Source: a virus (Duplodnaviria > Heunggongvirae > Uroviricota > Caudoviricetes). Taken from it: a DNA stretch of 42,889 nt. The notes under the pieces were generated by a model. It made no database searches and was not told the DNA's origin. It was given only the letters and a program-made list of their open reading frames with translations. The DNA lies in the IMG/VR virus record IMGVR_UViG_2703718853_000004; one strand, given 5' to 3'. Positions 8,598 through 34,121 of this stretch are shown here, one piece after another (position 1 is the first letter of the stretch; every line of letters starts with the position of its first letter). Made by a program: the position numbers and the translations under genes.

Positions 8598-9628
8598 GAG
8601 TATTGCGCCGCATCCAAACCTTTTGAGTTGAGCAAATCCCGAGCCCCTTTCGCCAGACACAGCAGGTCCATATACCACGCCTGCCCGCGAGTATCGCCAG
8701 TATAGTCAATGCTGCCGACAATGTAATCACCGTCGGTATTGATTGCCGCCAGCTGCGACCCGGGAAGCCCATCGACATAGATGTTACCGTCTGTGGTACT
8801 TTCGCCTAATAGACCTAGTGACTGACCAACCTGATCATTACCGAGAGCCTGACGATATACAGAGGCCTGATCCAGCCTGATAAGCCCCCCAAGCTTAATA
8901 TTCGGGTTTATCAGACAGCGTACATTCACCCCGGCGCCCATCGTCTGCTGAGGCATACCGATCAGGCCGGTATTGGCGTTCAGTACAATCGCTTCCTGTA
9001 TGTACTTATCATCAGGAACAATATGCACCTGGTTGTTTTCGTACCACCAGTTAGCCTTACATTGCCCTGCAAGGCTGTACATCAGGCGTCCAGTGTTCTG
9101 ATAAATAGTACGGCCGCGGGGGAATACAGTTGGACCAAAATCCGGCCTGCTTCCCTCTGTAATGCCATAAGGGCTAAGGGACTGCATACCCAAATCAAAC
9201 AGGTCAGCATGCTTCCAGCCTGCCGATACTGTCGTTTTCACGCTGGCGTTGAGATGCCCCTCCCAGCCATCAATACACTGGATGAGCACCCAACTATCGG
9301 TGACGTTATCTTTTCCGGTAACGGTAAAGCGAATATCACCGTTAAAGATGATCCCCACATTTTTATCAGGATAGTTGCCGCTGCTGTCTGCTGTGCCGTT
9401 ATACCCGGCAATAGCCCTTACACGAGTAAATTCTTTACCCATGATCCGGTTTTGAGTCTCCGGCGACAGATTGTAGATTTTGAAGTTACCCACGAATCCG
9501 TTAAAGATAGTCGCGGGCATCTTCTGGATATTAAACGTCACCTTAAAATCCGACAGCGAAATCCCATCACCCTTATCGTCAATAAGCTGCAGCTCAAAGT
9601 GCCGCATCCAGTTCTGAGACATAATCAC
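8594..9628 (-). CDS. Putative baseplate hub / tail protein
   Basis: 344 aa ORF between tape-measure-proximal tail genes and the baseplate cluster. Confidence 0.55.
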   Translation of the reverse strand: MIMSQNWMRHFELQLIDDKGDGISLSDFKVTFNIQKMPATIFNGFVGNFKIYNLSPETQNRIMGKEFTRVRAIAGYNGTADSSGNYPDKNVGIIFNGDIRFTVTGKDNVTDSWVLIQCIDGWEGHLNASVKTTVSAGWKHADLFDLGMQSLSPYGITEGSRPDFGPTVFPRGRTIYQNTGRLMYSLAGQCKANWWYENNQVHIVPDDKYIQEAIVLNANTGLIGMPQQTMGAGVNVRCLINPNIKLGGLIRLDQASVYRQALGNDQVGQSLGLLGESTTDGNIYVDGLPGSQLAAINTDGDYIVGSIDYTGDTRGQAWYMDLLCLAKGARDLLNSKGLDAAQYS

Positions 9629-13586: not shown

Positions 13587-14732
13587 TTATCGCACCACAT
13601 TGATCTGCACGTCGGCATAGTGAATGGCACCCGCCAGTTTGATCGCCGCCTGAATCACCGGCGACTTACGCGCTTCCCTGTCGGACTGCGCCTGGTTATC
13701 TACTGAATCGGCGTAGACGTAGTAACCCTTGGTCAGTGTGTCACCTGATTCAATCTGGCCGATCGGGCCGCCATTCCATACACCCGGAGCAATAAGGCCG
13801 TTATTTACCGCCTGATCCAGTGAGGCTTCGACGTTGGTCATTAACCGGGTTACGCCCGCGTCGGTTTGCGGAATTTTGGTATTCGAGGTGTACAGCAGGT
13901 TGTAAAGGTTGGTCTGAACGTAGTTCTGCAGCCAGTCCAGCCCGTGGCGCTCATCAAAGAAATCACCGTTCGCCATGACACCCTGCTGGATAATCGCTGT
14001 ATCGTTGGCGTAGTAGACGTAGACGTTACCGTTAATGGCATCAATAGCGGACGCCTGCGCGGTCGTGAGCGTTTCGTACGTCACGCCAGGCTCGGTTTTG
14101 AATTTCAGGGTGATCGTGGTGTTGTTGCCGGTGAAATTCACCGTAAACGCACGGCCAAATGCCGAGATAGCGGCGTATTTGCTGCTGGAGCTGTACTGCC
14201 AGAACGTACGGCTGTAGCCGGCGGCTTTCAGCTTATAGCCGATGTTGTCGGTATTCCCCGAGACCAGCACATTCACATCATCAGTGGTAACGGCCAGAAT
14301 GCGACTCAGGCTGGATGCCTCGATCGCCGCAGCAACCGAAATCACGTCAGCCTCAACCAGATCGGCGCTATCGGCAATCGCCAGCCCGTACCAGTTGGTA
14401 TATTGCAGAGAGGCATTAACCGCCTGCAGCAGCGTTTCAACTGTGCCATCTTCACCTTCCGCCAGCGTCTTCGCCCAGCGGCCGATATAGACCAGCGTCG
14501 GTTTTGGTGATTGTGAAAAGAAGATGGTCGCTGCTTCGTATTCCGGGGAGTCAACGCCAAAATCATCGCCGATATCTTCAATGGCCGAATACTGGCGAAT
14601 GCGCTCGGTAACCGGAATAACGGTAGAGGTTCCCAGAATGAGGAGCGCACCGAAGTTTCGCCCCGTTGCCGCTACCGGTGACATGATGACGTCAACGTTA
14701 ACGACATTGGAAACAGGTAAGCCCTGTGCCAT
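13587..14732 (-). CDS. Tail sheath-like protein (DUF3383-like)
   Basis: 381 aa, upstream of tube and chaperone; implies a contractile tail. Confidence 0.6.
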
Positions 14733-14735
14733 GTT

Positions 14736-15276
14736 TTAATCTCCAAAAAATTGCACTGGCGCGTCGACCAGCGATTGAATGCCGTACTGGCGGATGATTT
14801 TGCGGCGCAGGTCAACGCTGATATCGTACCGGCGCACCCACTGGTTATTGATGAGTTCGGGCAGATTGAGGATCCGCCCATGCTGCAGAAATGTCAGGCC
14901 TGAGCGGTTGAGCTCGTCATTGTTCTGCGAGACCAGCAGACCGTCACGAAAGCGCGTGGCCATTGCCAGCCCCTGCGGGCCATAGAAGCACAAGATCAGG
15001 CTCACGGTCTCATGCGACCACTGTTCGGTGTTCTCTTCGCCCTGCACGTACGCCGGGTTGAAGTCCTCCTGAATGCCGGTGATACCGAACGCGCACCAGG
15101 TGGTGCCGTTTTTGGGTATCTGCTTTTGCGGGTCAGTCCAGCGTGGGTAAACCAGCGTGGCAGCCAGCCCTGTCACACCCCGTATCCAGCGGCTGATTAG
15201 CCGTTCCAGATCCTCATCGTAGGGCGGTGAATCACCGACGGGGGTCAGATATCCCGCCGTTGTGCTGTCGTTACTC
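14736..15276 (-). CDS. Structural protein (neck/tail completion candidate); start uncertain
   Basis: ORF 14736..15359 has no internal ATG near the upstream stop; a TTG at 15276 with GGGGGAA SD avoids an 89-nt overlap. Confidence 0.4.
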
Positions 15277-21851: not shown

Positions 21852-23252
21852 TTAGCTGTTTCCCAGCGCTTCCCAGATATCCATTGCCGTATCGGTTGGA
21901 GCAAACGCCATGATGAACGCGTCGGCCACGTTCGGCGATGGTACGTCACGCTTGGCGAGGTCTTTCTTGCTTTCCACCATCACGCGACCGTTTTTGTCAA
22001 AATCACGGTGCGGGGTGGTAAGTTCCAGCTTGAGCTTTTCCAGCAGCGGACAAGATGAGTCGATGCTTATCAGCTCATCTACCGGGTACTGCTCGCCGTT
22101 CTTTACCGCGTTGAAGGTGTTACGGAAGCGATCCGCCACCAGCCACCAGGCTTGCGCTTTGAGGTTGGCGAAAAAATCCTTGTTCGGGATGCCAATATAT
22201 TCGTAGTCCGGCTCATTCACACCAGCGCCAGCATTGAATCGCTGATAATTGATGCGGGATGCATTCATGTTTTCGCGCTTACGATCCTCATTAATTTCTG
22301 AGAATTTCGCGCCAGCAGATGCCCCAACGCCGATTGAGTCGTAGACAATATCAGCATCACGCTCCAGTGCCGCCTGATACGTACGCTGGCAGCTCTTCAG
22401 CAATTCGTCTTCTTTCGCCTTCCACTCATCCGCCCAATACACGACGGAGCCGTGACGATAGACGTTAGCGCACTTATCGGCGCCGCTATCAGCAACGTCG
22501 AAGCCAATACGCTTGCGCCCGCTCGGCTCGAAATTAAGGACTTTATGGGCATCAACGGCCGCCTCAATCCATGACAGCTTGATAATGGCCGCATCATCAT
22601 CCGACTCTGGCACGCCTTCGTAGACATGCTTAAACCCATCCGGATCCCGGCGTTTAGCGGCGTCGATAACCTTCAGCATGGTGTCGGACAAAAAGGGGTT
22701 TTCATCGTAGTTGATTTTGCGTATCAGCGTATCTTCTGGCGGATCGACCACAAAGTTACGCCACACGAAATCAGTCACCAGCCCGGGGTTAAAGATAAAC
22801 CAGCACTCTGATCCCTCTTTACGGATGGTTGGCTCCAGTATCTTCCACTGGTATTCCGTCAGCGCGTGGGCCTCTTCAAGCCACAGAACGCTGATACCCT
22901 CCAGAGACTTAATCTCTTCAATGTTGCGCCAGAGCCCATAAAAGACGAATTCAGACCCGGTCACCCGGTTAATGATTTTGTTGTTCAGAATGCGGAAACG
23001 ATGCCGCAGGCCAAAGCGGTCAATCTGAATTTTGAGCAGGGTATATACCGACTCTTCAATTTTGTTCTGGATCTGACGTGCACAGCAAAAGCGCAGGCTG
23101 TATTTATTCGACAGAAATATGGCTATGCCAGCGGCATCCCACGATTTTGACGATGACCGGCCACCATAAAGCACTTTGTTACGCGCCTGCGTCGTCCAGA
23201 AGCTACGCAGGACCGGATTCAGCGTCGGTTTGGATGTCAGAGTAGAAGTCAT
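21852..23252 (-). CDS. Terminase large subunit
   Basis: Start set at MTSTLTSKP (GGAGAG SD upstream); ATPase-like N-terminal region (GGRSSSKSWD, WLEEAH) and acidic nuclease-like C-terminal region; follows terS. Confidence 0.8.
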   Translation of the reverse strand: MTSTLTSKPTLNPVLRSFWTTQARNKVLYGGRSSSKSWDAAGIAIFLSNKYSLRFCCARQIQNKIEESVYTLLKIQIDRFGLRHRFRILNNKIINRVTGSEFVFYGLWRNIEEIKSLEGISVLWLEEAHALTEYQWKILEPTIRKEGSECWFIFNPGLVTDFVWRNFVVDPPEDTLIRKINYDENPFLSDTMLKVIDAAKRRDPDGFKHVYEGVPESDDDAAIIKLSWIEAAVDAHKVLNFEPSGRKRIGFDVADSGADKCANVYRHGSVVYWADEWKAKEDELLKSCQRTYQAALERDADIVYDSIGVGASAGAKFSEINEDRKRENMNASRINYQRFNAGAGVNEPDYEYIGIPNKDFFANLKAQAWWLVADRFRNTFNAVKNGEQYPVDELISIDSSCPLLEKLKLELTTPHRDFDKNGRVMVESKKDLAKRDVPSPNVADAFIMAFAPTDTAMDIWEALGNS

Positions 23253-23979
23253 TGAGGTCACGCTCTCCGTTGCCATCATCAATACCTGCATCACGGCGAA
23301 GACGATCGGCCTCCAGCGACACCTTATCAGTAGCAGCCTTGCGATAGTCTGTATCAGCAAATATTTTGCCTACCGTCGCAAGCGTGCCGACGATAGACTC
23401 AATACGAACGGTATTGCGCATCATCGCCTTCTCGGCGGCGCTGATATTTTCCATCAACACCTTTCTTTCCTGGTCCCCTTCAGCATCATCCAGCTTGGTC
23501 AACCACCGGCCAATATTCTCTGCGGCGACAAGGTTGTTAGCCCGAAGGCGAAATAATTCGTCTTCGAGTGTCAACGCTTTCGCGTCTTCAATGACCTCAT
23601 CTTTAAGCAGAAGACGGCGGGCGTAACCACCATGCTTTAACGCCTGCTGGTTGCCGGGTTGGAATGGGTTGGTCGGCGGATCGGTACGCACCCCGCGTAT
23701 CGGTTTCGTATCTGGTGGAGGTTCGGCTTTTGCTTGCGTACTTTTTTGCGTACGGCCAGCGCTGGCAGGCTTTTCGCTGGTACGCACCTTGCTCTTTTGC
23801 GTACCACTTTGCGTACCATTTTTGCGTACCTGCGTACCGCTATTGCGTACCCAGTCAAATTTTTTAGCCCTCTTCCTGATAGCCCCTTCAGTAACGCCGT
23901 ATTTATCGCCTATATCACGGAGACTAAGGACTCCGGCCCGGTATGCCGATTCGATGGCCTCCCAGTCCGGTTTTGCCAT
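23203..23979 (-). CDS. Terminase small subunit
   Basis: 258 aa; N-terminal HTH-like LSLRDIGDKYGVTEGAIRKR; immediately upstream of terL. Confidence 0.65.
   Translation of the reverse strand: MAKPDWEAIESAYRAGVLSLRDIGDKYGVTEGAIRKRAKKFDWVRNSGTQVRKNGTQSGTQKSKVRTSEKPASAGRTQKSTQAKAEPPPDTKPIRGVRTDPPTNPFQPGNQQALKHGGYARRLLLKDEVIEDAKALTLEDELFRLRANNLVAAENIGRWLTKLDDAEGDQERKVLMENISAAEKAMMRNTVRIESIVGTLATVGKIFADTDYRKAATDKVSLEADRLRRDAGIDDGNGERDLNDFYSDIQTDAESGPA
23733..23850. repeat. Cluster of at least 7 TGCGTAC direct repeats inside terS (pac-site candidate)
   Basis: TTGCGTAC recurs at about 23733, 23746, 23797, 23808, 23821, 23831 and 23843, plus one inverted copy near 23780. Confidence 0.45.
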
Positions 23980-24037: not shown

Positions 24038-24466
24038 TCAAGCTAAAACGCCGACCGTCTGTTTTTCTACTTTGTCTCTGGCCAGAGAAATGCAGAACCG
24101 CACAAACAGGGATGAAAGCGCATAACACACTGCGGTAAATACCCAGCCGCCGTAGGCAAGTAGAGCGATGGTCGCCATCATGCAGAACCAGCCCCACCAT
24201 CGAGCAATGACGTTCTTACGCCGGACAATCTTCCTCAGCGACTCCAGCACAGACTGACGTGATTTCTCATCAGTTATATGCTCTGCACCATGTGCGAGAA
24301 ATATTGTGATAATGCCAACCACCCCACCAAGAAATACCACCACCCAAAACGCAGCAGCAGCCACGTTAAGGACGTTGCTTTGCCCTGTGACCGACCCAAA
24401 AGCCAGCGCCGCAAGCAACGCGTAATAGAGGCCCTTATCAATCATGTCGATTAAAAACTTTTTCAT
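24038..24466 (-). CDS. Integral membrane protein (about 4 TM segments), function unknown
   Basis: 142 aa with four hydrophobic stretches; sits between the AT-rich cassette and terS. Confidence 0.45.
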   Translation of the reverse strand: MKKFLIDMIDKGLYYALLAALAFGSVTGQSNVLNVAAAAFWVVVFLGGVVGIITIFLAHGAEHITDEKSRQSVLESLRKIVRRKNVIARWWGWFCMMATIALLAYGGWVFTAVCYALSSLFVRFCISLARDKVEKQTVGVLA

Positions 24467-24575
24467 GCTGTTTTCCTTTTAGATGTGAGCCTGTCGCACG
24501 GCAGAGCCGCCGAAAGTTAACGGTTTGCCCAAGCTCACCGCTGAAATACTTTCTTTGATGTGCGCGAGCGATGCG

Positions 24576-24602
24576 CATAAAAAAGCCCCGCGATTGCAGG
24601 GC
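24576..24602 (-). terminator. Intrinsic terminator-like hairpin downstream of the AT-rich cassette
   Basis: Minus-strand GCCCTGC-aatc-GCGGGGC followed by TTTTTTA. Confidence 0.5.
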
Positions 24603-24635
24603 TGTATCTCATAAACTGAAAGTAAATGGATGAAA

Positions 24636-24902
24636 CTATTTTTTTATGTTTTCGAAAGTGGCTTCTACCATTTTCTTTCCAAACTCACCCATATCTTTAT
24701 ACATAACCTTTAAAAAGTTAATTGTGTTTGACGCTGCACCTTCCAATTTCCATTTACATGCAATAAAATTACAATTAATTAAATTAAAAGGCTGCAATCC
24801 TTTATATACAATTTCGCAATTTTCAAAAACGCACTTTTCGAAATGGTTGCCATCCAGTTCGACGACAGTATTATTAAAAGTGCTTGAAATAAATTTATTC
24901 AT
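24636..24902 (-). CDS. Small Cys-containing protein with period-5 (pentapeptide-repeat-like) hydrophobic pattern, AT-rich moron
   Basis: 88 aa; in VELDG/NHFEK/CVFEN/CEIVY/KGLQP/FNLIN/CNFIA/CKWKL every third pentad residue is hydrophobic; ATGA-coupled to the upstream membrane protein. Confidence 0.5.
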   Translation of the reverse strand: MNKFISSTFNNTVVELDGNHFEKCVFENCEIVYKGLQPFNLINCNFIACKWKLEGAASNTINFLKVMYKDMGEFGKKMVEATFENIKK

Positions 24903-25207
24903 ATTAATTCAAAGCCTTGCGTTGCATCAGTATCCTTGACATCATTACCGATCATTTTACCATTGGCCTGCATGAATCCTTTATCGTTGCTATAATCGCT
25001 TGGAGCATAAAGTGCAACATGATTAAAATTCAGCGTCAAAAAAAACACTATTACAAGCCCTGCCGGGAAAAACATTAAAAACCAAAGATATGTACTTTGT
25101 TGGGAATCATTAAGAAAAGGTAATACGAGGTTTGCAGAGACCTCTACTATCCCCGCAAAAATACCGATAATCGTTAACGGGTTTTTTATGTGGTTTATCG
25201 CGGACAA
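24899..25207 (-). CDS. Small 2-TM membrane protein, AT-rich moron
   Basis: 102 aa; hydrophobic segments about residues 10-32 and 38-60, then a polar C-terminal tail; very AT-rich codon usage. Confidence 0.5.
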   Translation of the reverse strand: MSAINHIKNPLTIIGIFAGIVEVSANLVLPFLNDSQQSTYLWFLMFFPAGLVIVFFLTLNFNHVALYAPSDYSNDKGFMQANGKMIGNDVKDTDATQGFELI

Positions 25208-33264: not shown

Positions 33265-34121
33265 TGTTGATCCCTCATCCAGTCCGGAAGTTCGGTTTTT
33301 CCGTAGTCTTTGTCAGCGAATCGCTCGGTGACACGTGACTCCTGTCGGCGTTGCGGTCTGGCGCCTTTTGGCTCAAATAGGCCCTGCCAGCCATTCGCGA
33401 TGCTCTGGTTAATAATTTCTTCAGGGGAGTAACCGTTCAGCCGGCAGCGGTCCAGCAGGTTGATAGCCTGGGTGACCGTCTGCTGAGACTTGATCGGCTT
33501 TTTCAGGTCGCGACGATATGCCACCCATGACGACCAGATTTCTGCAGAAAGCCAGTCAGGCAACTGAACAGCTAACGCATCGAACGAAACCGCCCGGGGG
33601 GATTTAGGGGGGTTATTAATATTGTCTTTATTGTCTTTTGTATGTTTGTCTTTTGTGTTTACCTGATTCGGGTAATAGGCGTTACCTGATTCGGGTAAAC
33701 TTTTCTTACCTGATTCGGGTAATGTTACCTTTTTCAGGTAAGGTCTCTTTTCTGTACCTTTTACGGGTAAAGATGACCATTCGCTGACCGTTTTATTAAT
33801 CCCGATAACACGACCGGTTTGAGTTAATATCCCCCGCTTAACCAGGACGCTTTTTGCAGCTGAGCACTTATGCGGGAGAATGCCGGTCAGCTCCGAAAGC
33901 TGCTCGTTACTGACCCAGTCAGATTTCTTGTTGAAGCCGTATGTTTTGCGCATGACAGCCATGAACACCAAAAGCTGATGCTGCGACAAACCCGCACGCA
34001 TGACAGCTTCAAGGAGCTCATTGGCGATGCGCGTAAACCCATCGTCGAGATCTGCCACGCGCAGCTCCTGTAGTGCCACGACAGGCACAGGGAAATTGAT
34101 TACCTCGGCAGTATTTGCCAT
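33261..34121 (-). CDS. Replication initiator (lambda O-like replisome organizer)
   Basis: 286 aa; contains the iteron array within its coding sequence; directly upstream of the helicase loader. Confidence 0.65.
   Translation of the reverse strand: MANTAEVINFPVPVVALQELRVADLDDGFTRIANELLEAVMRAGLSQHQLLVFMAVMRKTYGFNKKSDWVSNEQLSELTGILPHKCSAAKSVLVKRGILTQTGRVIGINKTVSEWSSLPVKGTEKRPYLKKVTLPESGKKSLPESGNAYYPNQVNTKDKHTKDNKDNINNPPKSPRAVSFDALAVQLPDWLSAEIWSSWVAYRRDLKKPIKSQQTVTQAINLLDRCRLNGYSPEEIINQSIANGWQGLFEPKGARPQRRQESRVTERFADKDYGKTELPDWMRDQQ
33659..33770. repeat. Iteron array (candidate replication origin) inside the O-like gene
   Basis: TTACCTGATTCGGGTAA at 33659, 33682 and 33706, degenerate copies at 33725 and 33755; AT-rich TTGTCTTTT repeats just before. 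Confidence 0.6.

Follow-up and report, generated by a model that had tools for sequence, protein, structure and literature searches.

A repeat array within the small terminase gene of an Escherichia coli prophage: a candidate pac site whose motif co-varies with the recognition helix of TerS

The genome recorded as IMG/VR entry IMGVR_UViG_2703718853_000004, a stretch of 42,889 nucleotides referred to here as the window, is an Escherichia coli prophage whose small terminase gene, terS, carries a dense array of short repeats within its own coding sequence. A repeated GGTNNNCA-type motif occurs at the same place in 229 homologous genes, and is specific to the class of recognition helix that each encodes. 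From these comparisons it is highly probable that the phage's own TerS protein binds the repeats through its N-terminal helix-turn-helix (HTH) domain, each repeat being one site of an array, and probable that this array serves headful packaging as the part of pac that is recognised. How small terminases select viral DNA is still unsettled: pac sites have been defined for few phages, that of ES18 is unknown, and the binding of TerS to pac has mostly appeared non-specific in vitro. The value of the present case lies in a correspondence between helix and site that can be read from sequence, and in the link to cassettes of such sites in satellite elements.

The heptamer TGCGTAC occurs 11 times in the window, compared to 3.9 copies expected from dinucleotide shuffles, none of which (0/100) reached the observed count. 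Nine of these copies cluster within 167 bp of terS (23684-23850), seven in direct and two in inverted orientation. On the plus strand the direct copies begin at 23735, 23747, 23798, 23810, 23823, 23831, and 23844, six of the seven being preceded by T (TTGCGTAC); the copies of opposite orientation occupy 23684-23690 and 23780-23786. Read along the gene strand, the repeat unit is GGTACGCA (8 bp, with the 7-mer core GTACGCA), with direct copies starting at gene nucleotides 130, 143, 151, 164, 176, 227, and 239, and inverted copies at 194 and 290; the array spans terS codons 44-99. Successive direct copies in the conserved core are spaced by 13, 8, 13, and 12 bp. An earlier note on this DNA had reported seven or more such repeats within terS, and both its count and its span fit the seven direct copies; because it overlooked the two inverted copies, the array reaches approximately 50 bp past the start that it gave. 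Its description of the encoded peptide as rich in VRK and GTQ also holds.

The array motif is constrained as DNA, independently of the protein, because the same word is kept in two reading frames, in inverted copies, and far in excess of what synonymous shuffles yield. Direct copies read GTA-CGC (V-R, as in VRK) in one frame and GGT-ACG-CAA (G-T-Q) in another, while inverted copies read GTG-CGT-ACC (V-R-T), and minor codons such as GTA and CAA are imposed by the motif. Synonymous codon permutation within the gene, with the protein fixed, produced 1.46 +/- 1.08 copies (maximum 8 in 20,000 permutations) against the nine observed (P < 5e-5), and synonymous sampling from window codon usage produced a mean of 0.77. 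It might be argued that the linker encoded here requires VRK/GTQ-like repeats, and that the DNA motif simply follows from amino acids and codon bias; the array region does encode a repetitive, basic, and disordered linker, and in HK639/8P-type genes all three direct copies share one frame, reading V-x-K/T. This explanation is already contradicted, and we regard it as scarcely credible. Besides the three peptides (VR, GTQ and, inverted, VRT) given by one DNA word within the same gene, and the 0.8-1.5 copies to which peptide-preserving shuffles reduce the nine, the third copy of PS-1-type genes always lies in a different frame, the encoded residue (R, S, A, T, or N) shifts in step with the distant HTH helix, and arrays are found in non-coding DNA too.

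The homologues, of which roughly 2,000 or more exist in all, were sampled as terS genes sharing the N-terminal domain: 21 cultured phages and 240 IMG/VR contigs supplied the set, which reduces to 229 non-redundant genes. The earlier note had proposed comparing terS repeats among relatives, and across this set the repeated motif is indeed kept at the same position, and changes with the TerS recognition helix. There are about 25 recognition-helix classes, each with its own GGTNNNCA-type motif, and a selection is given in Table 1; five singleton classes have no clear array. The motif co-varies with helix positions 1, 2, and 5, which in the window are E31, G32, and R35. Helix residue 2 predicts base 4 of the motif, alike in E/D and H backgrounds: G or A goes with A; T, V, or Q with T; and N with G.

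Table 1. Recognition-helix classes and the motifs repeated in the corresponding terS genes
Helix class	Motif
E/D-G-A-I/V-R-K-R/K	GGTACGC(A); for E-G-A-I-R, GGTACGCA
D-T-A-I-R	GGTTCGC; GGTTCGCA
H-G-A-I/V-N-K-R	GGTATCC(A); for H-G-A-I-N, GGTATCCA
H-T-A-I-N	GGTTTCC
H-A-T-I-L-K-R	GGTAACCA (GGTAACC)
H-N-T-I-L/M	GGTGACCA (GGTGACC)
H-V-A/G-I-A/G/N/T	GGTTACC(A)
H-V-T-I-S	GGTTAAC(A)
H-Q-A-I-S	GGTTGCC
E-G-T-I/V-R-S-R	TCACGCA
E-S-T-I-R-S-R	TCGCGCA

The arrays are also fixed in position. A 7-mer is present at least three times within the 240 nucleotides after the helix in 96.6% of genes, compared to 29.9% in the next 240 nucleotides, and at least four times in 60.5% and 0.7%, respectively. The usual layout is three direct copies and one downstream inverted copy, with the direct copies spaced by 15+12 bp (all in frame) or by 12+13 bp (the third copy in another frame), and the window type is enlarged to 4-7 direct and 1-2 inverted copies. 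In PSTCR7lys the inverted copy also follows the helix class (ERVL to ERQL, GCGTAC to GGCAAC), even though this alters a residue of the protein. The E-G-A-I-R/GGTACGC pair is seen with three TerS C-terminal architectures, with large terminases (TerL) of the Sf6, 933W, and 8P types, and in many HK639-type genes, in which the TerL fragment is short or matches no reference used; 933W/PS-1-type TerL, in turn, accompanies at least seven helix-motif pairs. The motif tracks neither TerS C-terminal type nor TerL type. The occurrence of one helix-motif pair across TerS and TerL types, and of many pairs with one TerL, suggests that the HTH segment and its array form a single exchangeable specificity module.

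Among 41 window-type genes, including even one from an Aeromonas phage, the array core (four or five direct copies and the first inverted copy) is kept; the spacers, third codon positions, and distal direct pair vary, the last being less conserved in relatives, to the point of loss or degeneration in those window-type genes that are more distant. Copy number is polymorphic among close relatives, by way of in-frame gains and losses of 12 bp (four codons, comprising repeat and spacer) that give rise to 3-9 copies and to TerS proteins of 246-267 residues (window 23735-23851, compared to loci L001, L029, L035, L037, L040, and others in our numbering). These 12-bp steps suggest slippage within the array.

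Strain KFu024 has the same terS as the window (100% identity), and in the Klebsiella Wanchaivirus phages GZ7, ST405-OXA48phi1.2, and Mulock the identity to it is 97-99%. No Pfam family covers the protein in a Pfam search, and a sequence search of the PDB found no solved relative. An AlphaFold model built on a shallow alignment predicts a three-helix HTH at residues 1-45 (predicted local distance difference test, pLDDT, 81-90), a disordered linker at residues ~48-106 (pLDDT ~30), and a helical hairpin core at residues ~134-205 (pLDDT 83-92 at 140-190). In this model the codons of the array coincide with the predicted disordered linker that directly follows the N-terminal HTH. The assignment of helix 3 as recognition helix is supported because sub-threshold profile matches align it with known HTH motifs, residues 18-40 being aligned to those of LrpA, TyrR, Sigma70_r4, and AsnC-type domains. 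A Foldseek search of the model against the PDB returned generic helical hairpins only (E > 0.2), because over half of the model is of low confidence.

Several lines of evidence agree with the proposal, made in the earlier note, that the repeats are a candidate pac site and a set of TerS binding sites within terS: the constraint on DNA, the co-variation with the helix, the type of TerL, relatives reported to package by headful, and the arrays of satellites described below. Headful packaging is suggested because the window TerL resembles Sf6 gp2, which is of the headful type; the match to Sf6 gp2 extends over nearly its full length, and a match to Terminase_3 was also found. The site lies in cis within terS itself, and its co-variation with the DNA-binding residues of TerS serves as a computational proxy for TerS-specific recognition. 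Further, the phages vB_EhrS_49 and vB_EhrS_59, which are reported as headful packagers, share the window helix type and carry GTACGCA four times. Data on packaging in Mulock, PseuP_222, USP_18, or HK639 were absent from the searched literature, as was any paper joining these motifs with terminase.

From these features we infer TerS binding, the geometry of wrapping, and the position and direction of the cut, as follows. TerS would form a ring through its helical core, with the HTH domains hanging on disordered linkers, and each HTH would read one 8-bp GGTACGCA site via residues 1, 2, and 5 of its helix. The 4-7 direct sites, ~12-13 bp apart, would let several HTHs of one oligomer hold a single stretch of concatemeric DNA, while the inverted copies may mark the limits of the TerS-DNA complex or give it an orientation. 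This complex would recruit the Sf6-type TerL, and a nearby cut would begin the unidirectional headful series. The HTHs in TerS rings are separated by about one helical turn (PMC4737164), and by analogy the 12-13 bp spacing of the array appears to fit that separation. Location of the array in the linker-coding segment would mean that the protein tolerates residues dictated by DNA (VRK, GTQ, VRT) and that the site stays linked to its reader domain; pac may thus lie inside terS because this tolerant segment keeps site and reader together when terminase modules exchange.

The array works like the known TerS recognition sites of P22, P1, SPP1, and lambda (cosB), and is a member of none of them. The earlier note had stated that P22 and SPP1 place pac within terS, and this is correct for P22, whose pac is a 22-bp asymmetric sequence within gene 3 (terS) that is alterable at wobble positions without a change in TerS. 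The likeness to P22 lies in a site inside the terS open reading frame (ORF) of a headful packager, and the difference in nine 7-8-mers over 167 bp as opposed to one 22-bp site. In P22 TerS the HTH-like motif is occluded and the C-terminus is implicated in DNA binding, and PDB and Pfam searches found no similarity of the window TerS to P22 gp3. The pac site of P1 consists of seven hexanucleotide repeats, which contain GATC, and lies within pacA under Dam control. Here the likeness is that the gene for the DNA-recognition subunit of a headful terminase contains approximately seven short repeats, grouped into two clusters: the window layout of 5+2 direct copies in two clusters, with two inverted copies, is P1-like. 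In contrast to P1, GATC is absent from every repeat copy in the window array, and PacA/PacB are unrelated to the window TerS and TerL.

For SPP1 the statement of the earlier note did not stand, as its pac (pacL/pacR, with the boxA, boxB, and boxC direct repeats) spans promoters and the 5' end of terS. SPP1/SF6 G1P resembles the window protein in having an N-terminal HTH and a helical oligomerisation core, with direct repeats as candidate HTH sites, and in its ring neighbouring HTHs are about one DNA turn apart, and a wrapping model is described. In SF6, binding of the DNA-binding domain to pac was non-specific and extended to every segment, and the repeats there are poorly conserved, whereas those of the window are exact and co-vary with the helix. 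The window array also differs in lying downstream of the HTH-coding part, in the linker-coding segment, and no PDB or Pfam match of the window TerS to G1P/Terminase_2 was found.

In lambda, the N-terminal winged HTH of gpNu1 binds the R1-R3 sites of cosB, upstream of Nu1, within a cos system that includes an integration host factor site and the cosN nick site. The likeness to the window, namely several repeated sites in or near the terS gene (at least three) with the N-terminal HTH of TerS as their known or predicted reader, raises the alternative that the phage is of the cos type, its ends cohesive and defined, and that the array is a cosB-like region bound by TerS; the records of several relatives do begin at or near terS. 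We consider this very unlikely. The window TerL is a Terminase_3 protein of the Sf6 gp2 headful type and not of the lambda GpA type, circular permutation or headful packaging is reported for vB_EhrS_49/59 and phiAH14b, and the Mulock contig was closed by polymerase chain reaction across its ends. Record starts at terS (HK639, SEN34, GF-2, EhrS_59) were rejected as physical ends, being a matter of convention. Breaks in the RCIP0034 and RCIP0098 records at terS nucleotide 689 were similarly rejected as a clue to the cut site, these being metaviralSPAdes assemblies without terminus analysis.

Arrays of this kind are also present outside terS. In a scan for three spaced GGTACGCA copies, with each species represented by a single genome, the matches comprised approximately 22 terS genes with the expected helix, 57 unrelated microsatellites, and approximately 25 non-coding loci (in Pseudomonadales, Burkholderiales, and others). 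The 57 microsatellite-like tandem repeats bear no relation to terS and were rejected as false positives; perfect GGTACGCA repeats of this type in Streptomyces, Myxococcota, and other high-GC genomes (L264, L268, L275, L285, L315, and ~50 more) are a source of such errors in simple pattern scans. Most of the non-coding matches lie in cassettes of 2-8 adjacent triplet arrays, each with a different GGTNNNCA-type motif (L272, reverse strand 1155-1680; L381, L308, L302, L305, L340, L318, L319, and at least 10 more). The arrays within them keep the 15/12 or 12/13 spacing of terS genes, often with a trailing ACGGAA as within terS genes. Their motifs include GGTACGCA, GGTTACCA, GGTTCGCA, GGTATCCA, GGTTTCCA, GGTTGCCA, GGTTAACA, and TTCACGCA, together with four that have no assigned helix (TGTAACAG, GTTGCGCA, GGTGAACA, and GGTAAACA), and a single Zoogloea locus holds eight arrays (GGTACGCA, GGTTACCA, GGTTCGCA, GGTATCCA, GGTTTCCA, GGTTGCCA, TGTAACAG, and again GGTATCCA). 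The terS and terL genes of this family were absent from 18 of 18 cassette loci, in each of which 3-8 kb were examined. The cassettes neighbour genes for a DUF927 primase/helicase, excisionase, umuDC, type ISP restriction, and Abi, cargo of the defence type among them, and such neighbours are characteristic of small mobile elements that integrate. When E. coli was searched with the 91-nucleotide core, only terS genes and no array-only copies were recovered. Phage F116 is not a member of this TerS family.

One carrier of a cassette is the satellite phiAH14b (KU708005), which lacks terminase genes and has been shown experimentally to undergo headful packaging into phiAH14a capsids. Its non-coding cassette, at 14188-14770, contains at least five motif types: GGTATCCA; a TCGCGCA-like motif; TTTCACGCA three times; TGTAACAG; TGCGCA three times; GGTTCGCAC three times with inverted copies; and GGTTTCCA three times. 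Satellites are known to mimic the single packaging signal of a helper, as in P4, SaPIbov5, EfCIV583, and PLE (the last with a 14-bp match to ICP1 pac). The phiAH14b and genomic cassettes are akin to these in carrying arrays identical in motif and spacing to those internal to terS, but the known cases copy the signal of a single helper, whereas each cassette lines up 2-8 arrays that differ in predicted TerS specificity. No description of such multi-specificity pac batteries was found in the searched literature. The cassettes may serve satellites as batteries of pac signals for multiple helpers, or alternatively may be terminase decoys.

Iterated 7-8-mers are typical of replication origins, and a DUF927 primase/helicase gene lies upstream of the cassette in two loci; the repeats might hence be iterons, or sites for a replication initiator, recombinase, or regulator unrelated to TerS. 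This is highly improbable, however, given that the motif tracks the TerS recognition helix over approximately 25 helix classes, that a single origin would not require up to eight iteron types, and that phiAH14b has separate origin-like iterons 5 kb from its cassette (GGGGAACAG, at 9290-9530, in both orientations about an AT-rich centre and immediately following the helicase gene).

A more serious question is whether TerS binds the array for another purpose. The sites could bind TerS and control the expression of terS and terL, by roadblock or translational coupling, with the true pac or cleavage determinant elsewhere. Co-variation shows recognition by TerS and not its purpose, and the sites do lie within the transcribed terS-terL unit. 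Against this, packaging recognition is the known role of TerS DNA binding, and terminase-less satellites, which need packaging, have their arrays in non-coding DNA with no terS nearby, where autoregulation would lack a target. On balance we find autoregulation alone unlikely, and favour a packaging site read by TerS.

A number of observations nonetheless weigh against such a site and its proposed code. TerS binding could serve autoregulation besides packaging, as well as in place of it. A search of the literature and of record termini found no footprint, mapped series-initiation cut, or test of cis requirement for any member of this TerS family. In SPP1/SF6 and Sf6, the best-studied pac systems with an N-terminal HTH TerS, the purified protein binds pac weakly and without clear specificity, and a code of one HTH to one site would therefore be unusual. 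Two adjacent copies in the window are only 8 bp apart, and a regularly spaced ring cannot fill both on one face of the DNA. A conservative within-gene shuffle gave p <= 0.05 in 138 of 227 genes, those with three copies being individually weak, for which reason it is position, class specificity, and the control region that carry the argument. Lastly, the putative TerS of the helper phiAH14a (AH14a_p60) belongs to another family and is without arrays, such that the phiAH14b cassette is unexplained by its one known helper; as the pair does not link cassette to helper, we rejected it as a direct helper-satellite test.

Taken jointly, the terS arrays and the cassettes can be read, albeit tentatively, as follows. 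The central bases of an 8-bp GGTNNNCA site, iterated 3-7 times beside the HTH segment, would depend on three helix residues of TerS, and satellites or terminase-less islands would exploit this simple code with cassettes of up to eight specificities. On this view the window array would be a single lock within a widespread system of locks and keys, which sets what DNA is packaged and transduced in Pseudomonadota. If this is true, a master-key set of pac sites would allow one element to be packaged by many unrelated helpers, or would decoy their terminases. More broadly, sequence alone suffices to predict both the site (the 8-mer array) and the residues that would read it (helix positions 1, 2, and 5) in hundreds of phages, whose hosts include Escherichia, Klebsiella, Salmonella, Erwinia, and Pseudomonas, and TerS-pac recognition thereby becomes directly testable. 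Potential uses include prediction of pac sites and of lateral-transduction start points for prophages of clinical E. coli and Klebsiella, forecasting of the helper range of satellites, and the design of packageable cargo for phage-based delivery.

The terminase features of the window are collected in Table 2. The terL gene lies downstream of terS and overlaps its end by 50 nucleotides; its mechanically called ORF reaches 23360, and relatives are annotated from an ATG equivalent to 23252.

Table 2. Terminase genes and repeat features of the window
Feature	Position	Strand	Basis or content
terS, small terminase, 258 residues	23203-23979	minus	PHROG 370, E 3.3e-100, residues 1-257
Predicted HTH recognition helix (helix 3), codons 31-40, EGAIRKRAKK	23860-23889	minus	AlphaFold model, sub-threshold alignments, co-variation
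Conserved array core	23779-23851	minus	Five direct GGTACGCA copies and one inverted copy
Core direct GGTACGCA copies	23844-23851, 23831-23838, 23823-23830, 23810-23817, 23798-23805	gene strand	
Core inverted copy	23779-23786		
Distal direct 7-mer pair	23735-23753	minus	cGTACGCA 23747-23753 and aGTACGCA 23735-23741, 12 bp apart
Second inverted copy	23683-23690	minus	GTGCGTACC on the gene strand; its GTG is the wrong start codon assigned by the Prokaryotic Genome Annotation Pipeline (PGAP) in RefSeq E. coli genomes
terL, large terminase, Sf6 gp2-like	21852-23252	minus	Pfam Terminase_3, E 7e-40; PDB 4idh, E 1.9e-79, residues 45-486

With regard to annotation, RefSeq/PGAP shortens terS in E. coli genomes to a hypothetical protein of 163 residues, corresponding to the last 163 codons, by way of a GTG start inside the second inverted repeat, and leaves the HTH domain and the whole array unannotated in most of the matching genomes; the stretch concerned is 23692-23979 in the window and 20490-20777 in L263. 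Upstream of terS, between it and the lysis genes, the window has three small ORFs on the minus strand (24038-25207; 142, 88, and 102 residues), the first of which looks hydrophobic by eye. In the otherwise matching KFu024 prophage, terS comes directly after the Rz1-like lysC, and the three ORFs may be an inserted moron. Elsewhere in the window, the top score in Tandem Repeats Finder belongs to a tandem repeat at 33659-33723 (period 23-24, 2.7-2.8 copies, TTACCTGATTCGGGTAATAGGC), each unit of which contains an inverted repeat.

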